Virus record (IMG/VR): IMGVR_UViG_3300046534_001193
Span: 1 to 64,000 of that record
DNA length: 64,000 nucleotides
DNA from: a virus
Strand: one strand, 5' to 3'
Each line of letters begins with the position of its first letter. Positions within the stretch are counted from its first letter, which is position 1. Below, piece by piece: positions 1,064 through 2,732 of the stretch. Made by a program: the position numbers and the translations under genes. The notes beneath the pieces are model-generated. The model saw only the letters and a program-made list of their open reading frames with translations, ran no database searches and was not told the origin of the DNA.

Positions 1064-1539
1064 TTTGTCACCTCATCTTCAAGTTTTCTAAGTTCATTCA
1101 GGCAATTTTCAACTATCTCTTTCAATGTATTTTCACAATGCCCATCTGCTAACGCCTTTGCCTCTGCCATGTGATCTACAAATATCTCTATCTTAGCCTC
1201 CAGATTTTTACTGACCTCCGCCAGAATTACTATGTGCTCACGCCGGTTAGGATTCAATGTGTCAATCTGAAGCCGGCTATCAAGATGTCTAATACGATCA
1301 GCCGCATTACTAGCCAGCGTCTCAGCTACGTGGTCACCGACGCATACGCCATCAACTTCGGTCGCGCATGGGAATAGGTCCAAGTCATTTTTGTACCATG
1401 GGAAGCCTAGGACTTTGCCTAAGGTTTGGCAGATTTCGTCGTTGCTTTTAGCGGCGGCAGCTTGGAGCGCCTCGACTCGTTGTTCTGCATCGTTTAAAGA
1501 TTTGATAGCAAAATTGTATTTGCCTCTAGTTACGTTCAT
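1060..1539 (-). CDS. hypothetical protein
   Basis: Start moved to ATG 1539 (GAGGT RBS, ATGA overlap with MTase stop). Confidence 0.75.
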   Translation of the reverse strand: MNVTRGKYNFAIKSLNDAEQRVEALQAAAAKSNDEICQTLGKVLGFPWYKNDLDLFPCATEVDGVCVGDHVAETLASNAADRIRHLDSRLQIDTLNPNRREHIVILAEVSKNLEAKIEIFVDHMAEAKALADGHCENTLKEIVENCLNELRKLEDEVTK

Positions 1540-2699
1540 TGTGTTACCTCGGTCTGGCTTATTAAGTTCAATGTTATCCATGCTTTAGCGGCTGTCTGTG
1601 GCACTACTCCGTTTCCCAAGAGCCTAATTCTGTCCACCCTGTCGGGACACCCATCAACCACTCTACCCACGTTGGGTTCAGGTGGCCACTGCATTGTTGC
1701 CTGCCACCTGCACTGTTCACTATTACTGTGGTCAAGCTCTCTTGGGTACCCTTCTTCGTTGGGTCGCTCCTGTCCTGATAACCCAGACGCGCTTCGTGGG
1801 CTGATGGAGTCGGCCAGTTCAGTGCCGCAGTCTGTAGATTCACTCCGCCCTTCTGTTTCGGCCCCTTCCCAGCTCCCGTGTGAGCGCTGGCGGTCGGAGT
1901 CGGCCATAGTCTCCCCGTGTGGGGGTCTATCATCCCTTCCGCTAGAGCCACCTGAGTTGACAAGTGAGTTGACTTCTCCACTGGTCGACCCGACGTTTTC
2001 GCTGACATCCCTGGCATGTTCGCTTTTGGAGTCGGCCAAGTCTGGACTATCGCTACTTGCTGATTCAGACCGTACTGGCAGTTCCTCCCTGTCACCTTGT
2101 CGTACAACCTCTCGCCTAGCTTCGGCGGCTGGCCATCCTTCGTCTGAAGTCGGTCTATCGTTATGCCTGATTCCCCCACGGCTGGAGTCCGCCAAGATAA
2201 AGACTCGCTTTCTCTGGTGAGCTGCGCCGACTTCACGCGCACTGAATATTCCCCACGTCGTAGAGTAACCTGTTTCTTCCAAGTCACTAATGACTGTACT
2301 GAGTCCAAGCGAGATGTGTCCTTCAACGTTCTCGAAAAATACTCGTCCAGGATTGATTGCTGCGATGTGATGGTAGATGAAGGGCCACAAGTGTCTGGGA
2401 TCTTCTTTACCGAGCCGCTTGCCTGCTGAGCTAAACGGTTGGCACGGATAGCCTCCAGTGATGATGTCAACTGCGTCTCGAAACAAGTGTGATGGGAAGG
2501 TTTTAAGATTCGTGTAAATAGGTGCGGGAGGTAGCTCACCCCTTTCCATCTTGCTGACCAAGTTCGCAATAGCGAAGGCTTCGATCTCCACATAAGCGAT
2601 GACTCTATGTTCAAGTCCTGCAAGGTCAAGTCCTCTTTCGAGCCCACCATATCCTGAGCAAAAGCTGATGACAGTTGGTAATTCTTTGGTAATATCCAC
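1536..2699 (-). CDS. C5-cytosine DNA methyltransferase, catalytic (alpha) chain lacking motif IX
   Basis: Motif I FCSGYGG, IV GGYPCQPFS, VI FENV, VIII HQRKRVF, X LLGNGVVP. Confidence 0.95.
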   Translation of the reverse strand: MDITKELPTVISFCSGYGGLERGLDLAGLEHRVIAYVEIEAFAIANLVSKMERGELPPAPIYTNLKTFPSHLFRDAVDIITGGYPCQPFSSAGKRLGKEDPRHLWPFIYHHIAAINPGRVFFENVEGHISLGLSTVISDLEETGYSTTWGIFSAREVGAAHQRKRVFILADSSRGGIRHNDRPTSDEGWPAAEARREVVRQGDREELPVRSESASSDSPDLADSKSEHARDVSENVGSTSGEVNSLVNSGGSSGRDDRPPHGETMADSDRQRSHGSWEGAETEGRSESTDCGTELADSISPRSASGLSGQERPNEEGYPRELDHSNSEQCRWQATMQWPPEPNVGRVVDGCPDRVDRIRLLGNGVVPQTAAKAWITLNLISQTEVTQ

Positions 2700-2701
2700 A
2701 C
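1604..2701 (-). CDS. Overlapping alternative-frame MTase partner (beta) chain: four W(P/R)TP repeats + motif IX-like C-terminus
   Basis: 365 open codons inside MTase gene; LNPTWVEWLMGVPTGWT resembles motif IX; GTG start shares the RBS. Confidence 0.8.
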   Translation of the reverse strand: MWILPKNYQLSSAFAQDMVGSKEDLTLQDLNIESSLMWRSKPSLLRTWSARWKGVSYLPHLFTRILKPSHHTCFETQLTSSLEAIRANRLAQQASGSVKKIPDTCGPSSTITSQQSILDEYFSRTLKDTSRLDSVQSLVTWKKQVTLRRGEYSVRVKSAQLTRESESLSWRTPAVGESGITIDRLQTKDGQPPKLGERLYDKVTGRNCQYGLNQQVAIVQTWPTPKANMPGMSAKTSGRPVEKSTHLSTQVALAEGMIDPHTGRLWPTPTASAHTGAGKGPKQKGGVNLQTAALNWPTPSAHEARLGYQDRSDPTKKGTQESLTTVIVNSAGGRQQCSGHLNPTWVEWLMGVPTGWTELGSWETE

Positions 2702-2732
2702 TATTTATTCCTCTTTAGTAGTTTATCGCTCA

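Follow-up and report, generated by a model that had tools for sequence, protein, structure and literature searches.

Two overlapping reading frames of a viral locus as a candidate two-chain DNA cytosine-5 methyltransferase

DNA cytosine-5 (C5) methyltransferases built from two chains have been described before. In M.EcoHK31I from Escherichia coli HK31 (target YGGCCR) the beta chain, which carries motif IX, is encoded in another frame inside the gene for the alpha chain, and both chains are needed (PMC2836561, PMC3404938). The alpha chain has motifs I–VIII as well as motif X, and keeps the recognition domain, while M.AquI (target CYCGRG) is a natural two-chain split in the variable region with motifs I–VIII on one chain (PMC3404938). 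Fragments of several single-chain C5 methyltransferases also complement each other (PMC2836561, PMC3404938). Here we describe a locus in the first 64,000 nucleotides of the IMG/VR virus record IMGVR_UViG_3300046534_001193 (the whole analysed stretch, hereafter the window), in which two long open reading frames (ORFs), A and B, share the same DNA on the minus strand. Judged from sequence comparison, they probably encode the two chains of a C5 methyltransferase of the M.EcoHK31I kind, with the large domain in frame A and the small domain in frame B.

The overlap as such has already been noticed in print. An "apparent total overlap" of two C5 methyltransferase products was named as a striking feature of the 5093-group phages of Streptococcus thermophilus, with pneumococcal phage MM1 (Obregon 2003) and Tn5252 (Sampath and Vijayakumar 1998) cited for the overlap (PMC5601072, 2017). 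Unlike the present analysis, the passages of that paper on the overlap give no mechanism, selection test, start analysis or domain assignment. Papers on Paenibacillus larvae phages list two methyltransferase genes, without comment in the parts where the genes are named. Our literature search, which covered papers apart from their supplementary tables, found the mention in PMC5601072 and no paper that explains or tests the overlap layout.

The window is part of an 81,991-base virus record that is rated complete, and frame A is the only match to the methyltransferase family PF00145 in that record. A first-pass annotation of the window, made from the sequence alone, had pointed to a GAGGA-N7-GTGTG arrangement with two GTG starts, leading into minus-strand ORFs of 365 aa (frame B) and 387 aa (frame A) that both stay open for about 1.1 kb. 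The sequence and the ORF translations agree with this description in full (Table 1), and frame B, which ends in ...LNPTWVEWLMGVPTGWTELGSWETE, has no stop across the 364 overlapping codons.

The double frame is not a product of chance. As a null model, the synonymous codons of one frame were shuffled and the stops counted in the other. Over the 364 overlapping codons of the window, 300 shuffles gave a mean of 8.2 frame-B stops and a minimum of 4, compared with the 0 observed, and the third frame contains 32 stops. Homologs were gathered through the frame-A alignment, which avoids selection by frame B; of the 598 pattern matches in viral contigs, 575 proved to be relatives, from which the top 80 were taken. 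Frame B has no stop over the overlap in 65 of the 69 unique frame-A ORFs (shuffle mean 7.1 stops), and the third frame has 9–32 stops across the same 69 genes. Around the catalytic Cys, the +1 frame is open for 210–465 codons and the +2 frame for only 11–65 (85 of 89 loci, those with a motif-pattern match).

The same arrangement is found far from the window. Both frames are open from end to end in the uncultured phage C75C1 (482 and 460 codons, stop to stop) and in Salmonella phage S9-5 (251 and 247 codons). Among other distant phages, those of Acinetobacter, E. coli and Paenibacillus have an open frame B too, and a Microbacterium phage keeps a nested frame-B ORF. An independent set of 80 loci on bacterial genome contigs shows the layout again in Proteobacteria, Bacteroidota, Verrucomicrobia and Planctomycetes, and the genome-contig relatives that keep both frames have a G+C content of 0.44–0.66. 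Of the 74 bacterial loci with a catalytic-Cys match, 38 have the motif-IX-like pattern in frame B and 13 have it in frame A, while the pattern hits neither frame of the other 23.

The start site is shared in the relatives as well. That one ribosome-binding site serves two overlapping starts had been proposed for the window in the first pass, and this holds as a conserved feature: an overlapping start is found at the same position in 66 of the 69 unique genes (55 ATGTG, 10 GTGTG and 1 TTGTG), and a Shine-Dalgarno-like core lies 5–12 nt upstream of it in 57 of these 66. The first triplet, which is ATG in most relatives, opens frame B and the GTG opens frame A, so that frame B has the stronger start codon there. 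The starts are 4–8 nt apart in the more distant phages C75C1, S9-5 and Acinetobacter phage ABMM1. Paenibacillus, E. coli SCS92 and Microbacterium phages have the frame-B start some tens of codons within frame A. It is far upstream of the first module in every gene whose frames were read.

Frame A has the features of a catalytic chain. Its match to PF00145 (E 2.4e-30) places residues 9–210 on profile positions 2–200 of 324. By eye, FCSGYGG, GGYPCQ (with the Pro-Cys dipeptide), ENV, QRKRVF and LLGNGVVP can be identified, which we take to be motifs I, IV, VI, VIII and X, and the middle part of the protein is of low complexity. These are the motifs and the low-complexity variable region that had first been ascribed to the 387-aa frame. 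Among called proteins, at least 7971 of 8000 scored candidates are homologs of frame A at E ≤ 0.001, and all 120 listed contain PF00145. Yet frame A does not have the layout of a one-chain C5 methyltransferase: the modules and the motif-IX-like segment are in frame B, and of the parts beyond the core only the GN motif is in frame A. In short relatives, only about 50 residues separate motifs VIII and X in frame A. Because the middle stretch is neutral (see below) and the short relatives keep only these residues, frame A has no recognition part of its own.

Frame B consists of an N-terminal part, four modules that start with W-P-T-P or a variant of it, and the motif-IX-like segment near the C-terminus. 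The bases that encode LNPTWVEWLMGVPTGWT in frame B read EPNVGRVVDGCPDRVDR in frame A. Called homologs of frame B are also numerous (at least 4006 of 8000 scored candidates at E ≤ 0.001), with 100% query coverage for many of those listed, and a Pfam family is absent from 119 of the 120 listed. Frame B matches phrog_1008 ("DNA methyltransferase") with E 1.3e-20. Searches of Pfam and NCBIfam with frame B of the window gave no match, and a protein atlas search with it returned only unnamed viral clusters at low recognition. When frame B of the window is compared with that of the Salmonella phage, significant similarity is confined to the C-terminal motif (E 7e-9).

Each module of the window begins at a copy of the 11-mer TGGCSGACTCC, which has four matches in the window where 0.02 are expected. 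The number of modules ranges from 0 to 6 per protein among 149 frame-B proteins, and modules like those of the window occur in different combinations among the 147 other proteins. Contigs from ice metagenomes join across modules within 1690–2222, for example from 1816 to 2201 and from 1690 to 2184. These joins hint at relatives with fewer modules, lost or gained at the W-P-T-P repeats, the contigs being short and mixed.

Selection was followed segment by segment with our own script modelled on OLGenie, which sorts substitutions by their effect in each frame (N, changing; S, silent; frame A is given first and frame B second). Over motifs I–VIII (168 gapless codons, 56 distinct sequences) frame A is under selection: dNN/dSN for frame A is 0.24 (0.18–0.33), and dNN/dNS for frame B is 0.62 (0.51–0.74). 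Only 9 gapless gene pairs were available for the module region, so ungapped in-phase blastn matches were used there instead (221; all 283 found were in phase). Here the ratio for frame B falls to 0.086 (0.077–0.095) and that for frame A rises to 1.30 (1.16–1.47). Changes that are silent in B and alter A occur at 0.82 per site (dNS), those silent in both frames at 0.68 (dSS) and those altering B at 0.05–0.07. In the module region frame A is thus an unselected linker, and frame B is strongly selected. After the frame-B stop, strong selection returns to frame A, which has a non-synonymous rate (dN) of 0.072 with the synonymous rate (dS) saturated and a four-fold diversity of 0.61–0.74. Selection thus switches between the frames along the gene.

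Although its residues are not selected, the linker is kept open. It has no frame-A stops in 49 of 53 genes, where 4.2 are expected when the frame-B codons are shuffled. In the window there are 0 stops compared with a shuffle mean of 4.7, and only 1 of 300 shuffles reached 0. The relatives L086 and L089, whose frame A closes just past motif VIII and whose motif X belongs to frame B, have 11 and 6 stops in the corresponding stretch, compared with 10.6 and 7.2 under the null model. Because these two match the null, the linker is kept open only where a needed motif X lies downstream in frame A.

The N-terminal part of frame B was examined through four-fold sites with a conserved frame-A residue at which no base can create a frame-B stop. 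The 33 such sites over this part have a mean diversity of 0.32, compared with 0.69 at 6 sites in the tail coded by frame A only (one-sided Mann-Whitney p 0.0014). Nearly frozen are 13 of the 33, fixing frame-B residues such as L36, L61, E75 and R155, and frame-A codons 82–106 are near saturation. Because of the low diversity we read parts of the frame-B N-terminus as being under residue-level selection, and the segment as more than a spacer. Interruption of the second frame in homologs, which the first pass had named as a ground for refuting its reading, does not overturn it: the frame is open in 65 of 69 unique genes and in the distant phages, and at the level of sequence comparison that reading is supported. 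Constraint at synonymous sites, which the first pass also proposed to check, shows in the 13 frame-A four-fold sites that hardly vary and fix frame-B residues.

The same parts are divided between the frames in three ways. In the first layout, that of the window, the motif-IX-like segment is in frame B and motif X in frame A. In the second (L086, L089, P0050 and most of 43 representatives described below), motifs IX and X are both in frame B. In the third, found in Streptomyces and Kitasatospora (L158–L174), motifs IX and X are both in frame A and the modules stand alone in a nested frame B. The modules of these loci (for example L170, 1190–2155) are of the LPTP kind and lie in a +1 ORF. ORF length alone is uninformative in these actinobacterial relatives because of their high G+C content.

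A search of 1.84 billion representative proteins with the frame-B end of the L086 type gave 1962 relatives. From the best 150, 43 long ones that match from the LNP motif through the GN motif were picked by eye. Of these, 39 lack PF00145, most of them starting like frame B, and 4 contain the catalytic core. Three of these four, P0364, P0385 and P0250, are single chains in which xPTP modules and LNPxWVExLMG follow motif VIII and precede the GN motif without a change of frame. Canonical enzymes have their recognition domain and motif IX in this place. It is mainly because of this position of modules and motif in single-chain relatives that we call frame B the small domain.

Standard gene callers had been expected to drop one of the chains, and the records bear this out, since different records call either frame. 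In Paenibacillus larvae phage records both ORFs are annotated as methyltransferases. In Escherichia phage vB_EcoS_SCS92 (L092, 996–1811) only a frame-B-like ORF of 220 aa is annotated, as "methyltransferase", and the overlapping open frame of 271 codons (stop to stop), which has the catalytic motifs, is unannotated.

Table 1. Position of the shared start, the two frames and their segments in the window.
Feature	Position	Strand	Remark
Shine-Dalgarno-like GAGGA	2709..2713	minus	separated by 7 nt from the frame-B start and by 9 nt from the frame-A start; spacer ATAAATA
Overlapping dual start GTGTG	2697..2701	minus	GTG 2701-2699 opens frame B; GTG 2699-2697 opens frame A
Frame A, 387 aa, MDITKELP... 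(VDITKELP... as encoded)	1536..2699	minus	proposed catalytic chain: motifs I–VIII, linker, motif X
Catalytic core, frame A residues 1–170, motifs I–VIII	2190..2699	minus	many invariant alignment columns
Low-complexity linker, frame A residues 171–337	1689..2189	minus	read through; no detectable protein-level selection
Motif X region, frame A residues 354–373, RVDRIRLLGNGVVPQTAAKA	1581..1640	minus	alignment columns invariant; tail coded by frame A alone
Frame B, 365 aa, MWILPKNY...	1604..2701	minus	proposed recognition chain: N-terminal part, four modules, motif-IX-like end
N-terminal part, frame B residues 1–169	2195..2701	minus	overlaps the frame-A catalytic core; kept open, single residues partly constrained
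Module M1, frame B residues 170–221, starts WRTP	2039..2194	minus	module of at least 50% identity in 16 of 147 other frame-B proteins
Module M2, frame B residues 222–265, starts WPTP	1907..2038	minus	shared by 3 of the other 147 frame-B proteins
Module M3, frame B residues 266–295, starts WPTP	1817..1906	minus	in none of the other 147 frame-B proteins sampled
Module M4, frame B residues 296–340, WPTPSAHEARLGYQ...	1682..1816	minus	in 53 of 147 other frame-B proteins
Motif-IX-like segment, frame B residues 341–357, LNPTWVEWLMGVPTGWT	1631..1681	minus	nearly invariant in the frame-B alignment
11-mer TGGCSGACTCC, four copies	2194-2184, 2038-2028, 1906-1896, 1816-1806 (span 1806..2194)	minus	at the start of each module

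A mechanism that would account for this layout can be outlined. One Shine-Dalgarno site would feed two starts with an offset of 2 nt, GTGTG in the window and ATGTG in most relatives. Ribosomes that initiate in frame A would make the large catalytic domain, with motifs I–VIII, a linker of about 170 residues that is unselected and kept open, and motif X. Those starting in frame B would make the N-terminal part, the four exchangeable W-P-T-P modules and the motif-IX-like segment. We take the modules to be the target-recognition part, which together with the motif-IX-like segment would correspond to the small domain of single-chain enzymes. We assume that the chains pair in the manner of M.EcoHK31I, M.AquI and artificially split C5 methyltransferases. 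The methylation would probably shield the DNA of the phage against restriction by the host, and more than one target sequence may be involved. Translation, assembly, activity and targets of both chains, and a chain ratio set by start-codon choice, are what we infer from the frames. We also put forward a more tentative extension, in which we place somewhat less than even confidence. It holds that the first ~500 nt are selected in both frames, with the frame-B N-terminus for instance docking on the catalytic chain, that the [A/G]TGTG start sets the ratio of the chains, and that exchange of W-P-T-P cassettes at the 11-mer reshuffles which host restriction sites are masked.

Several results weigh against this assignment. 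PF00145 matched 0 of 87 frame-B proteins, frame-B proteins of the L086 type had no match in Pfam, and a frame-B profile gave only chance-level matches to the sequences of solved structures (best E 0.6). The sole hhalign match places LNPTWVEWLMGVPTGWT on RRLTPRECARLMGF of Dcm (residues 399–413) and is not significant (E 0.5). The motif IX label that the first pass gave to the end of the 365-aa frame is a matter of pattern and position and has no statistical support. The first pass also described the second chain too narrowly as the motif-IX chain: a motif-IX-like segment is present, but so is the whole presumed recognition array of W-P-T-P modules. Between distant relatives the N-terminal part of frame B is only weakly similar (E 0.24), the frame-A core of the same pair giving E 8e-25. 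Four of the 69 genes have 1–2 frame-B stops, which judging by the frame extents lie upstream of frame B's own start, and L041 and L042 have one stop each inside the frame-A linker. These last two are near-identical viral contigs with the stop at 1867–1869 and frame B open; the stop could mean that the catalytic chain no longer works, that the stop is read through or that the assembly is wrong. A sequencing artefact in the form of two compensating indels was rejected as the origin of the layout, because it recurs in dozens of independent assemblies.

Three other explanations have to be considered beside two separate chains. Long alternative ORFs are common in G+C-rich DNA, and all three frames are long in the Streptomyces relatives, as would be expected if frame B were an untranslated accident of base composition or of frame-A codon choice. 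The window and its relatives are however of ordinary composition (0.44–0.66 G+C for those on genome contigs), and the 65 of 69 genes without a frame-B stop compare with 7.1 stops expected. The frame-B modules are under strong purifying selection (0.086), frame-A four-fold sites are frozen where they fix frame-B residues, and the homologs are not assembly duplicates, as the 56 distinct sequences in the motif I–VIII analysis show; an accident is thus highly improbable. It is easier to imagine, though still unlikely, that frame B is translated and is something other than a methyltransferase subunit, for example an overprinted DNA-binding or anti-defence protein. Such a role would fit a protein that has no significant Pfam, NCBIfam or solved-structure match and falls into unnamed viral clusters of the atlas, but it leaves frame A alone, without a selected recognition region. 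It also has to contend with single-chain methyltransferases, where these modules and this motif sit between motifs VIII and X, and with motif X itself lying in frame B of L086-type genes. The last explanation keeps the enzyme and gives up the second chain: frameshifting or transcriptional slippage would lead from frame A by +1 after motif VIII into the modules and by -1 back before motif X, making a single fused chain and an ordinary one-chain enzyme. The single-chain relatives have exactly this order of parts, and joining the frames would restore the canonical order in all three layouts. In the window, though, the motif-IX-like segment (1631-1681) overlaps the first part of motif X (1581-1640), PTGWTELGSW lying over PDRVDRIRLLG, and because the same bases code for both, one chain cannot hold both of them whole. 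A fused product would need neither the open first ~170 codons of frame B, nor a start codon there, nor an open linker, and all three are kept. No slippery site was seen by eye at either junction of the window, no systematic search having been made. We regard a fused chain as quite unlikely, and two chains encoded in two frames as the probable arrangement.

If both chains are real, the locus would be among the clearest cases in which two frames of one DNA stretch spell out one enzyme. The boundary between the frames would then follow the two structural domains of the enzyme, and the division would be kept in thousands of phage and prophage genes. For annotation, keeping one frame only leaves either a methyltransferase without its recognition part or a "hypothetical protein". 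The overlapping starts may also offer a natural test bed for how ribosomes divide between frames, and the modules suggest that phages change their methylation specificity by cassettes in their arms race with restriction systems.

The genes around the methyltransferase have almost no PHROG names. Directly upstream on the minus strand is a gene of 71 aa (2733-2948) that matches phrog_1578 (unknown function) with E 4.8e-14. Downstream, the frame-A stop TGA (1538-1536) shares bases with an ATG (1539-1537), giving an ATGA overlap at 1536..1539 on the minus strand, and GAGGT at 1550-1546 sits 7 nt upstream of this ATG. It is probably here (MNVTRGKY...) that the next gene begins, rather than at ATG 1581, which is listed as the ORF start, and the gene may be translationally coupled to frame A. 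Three consecutive small genes on the minus strand (249-1581) share a ...LEDEVTK tail, and none of the three has a convincing PHROG match.

Of the known two-chain enzymes, M.EcoHK31I resembles the locus in two respects. In both, the second chain is coded in another frame of the first chain's gene, here as conserved and selected ORFs, and frame A has motifs I–VIII and X like the alpha chain. By the described layout, however, the beta chain of M.EcoHK31I is a short nested ORF, whereas the overlap here takes up about 94% of the gene and the two frames start 2 nt apart behind one ribosome-binding site. The alpha chain also keeps the recognition domain, while here the whole module array is in frame B. 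The locus had been proposed to be an extreme version of M.EcoHK31I, and this is apt for the near gene-length overlap and the shared start; it does not extend to the presumed recognition array, which is on the second chain and not the first. With M.AquI the resemblance is in the relatives L086, L089 and P0050, whose frame A goes no further than motif VIII and whose motifs IX and X are on the other chain, unlike the window, where motif X stays on the catalytic chain. The two genes of M.AquI overlap only slightly and do not share the whole gene.

Outside the two-chain methyltransferases, the spanins Rz and Rz1 of phage lambda likewise use two frames of the same DNA for a joint function. Their function is unrelated, and the Rz1 gene is short and nested, with an internal start of its own. 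The multispecific C5 methyltransferases of Bacillus phages such as SPR and phi3T have tandem short recognition modules between motifs VIII and IX in a single chain and one frame, and phages differ in how many modules they have and how these are combined. The putative recognition modules of the window are tandem and variable in combination as well, but they lie in a separate frame. By their printed description, the genes of the 5093-group phages, MM1 and Tn5252 have two products from the same DNA in different frames, as is proposed for the window.

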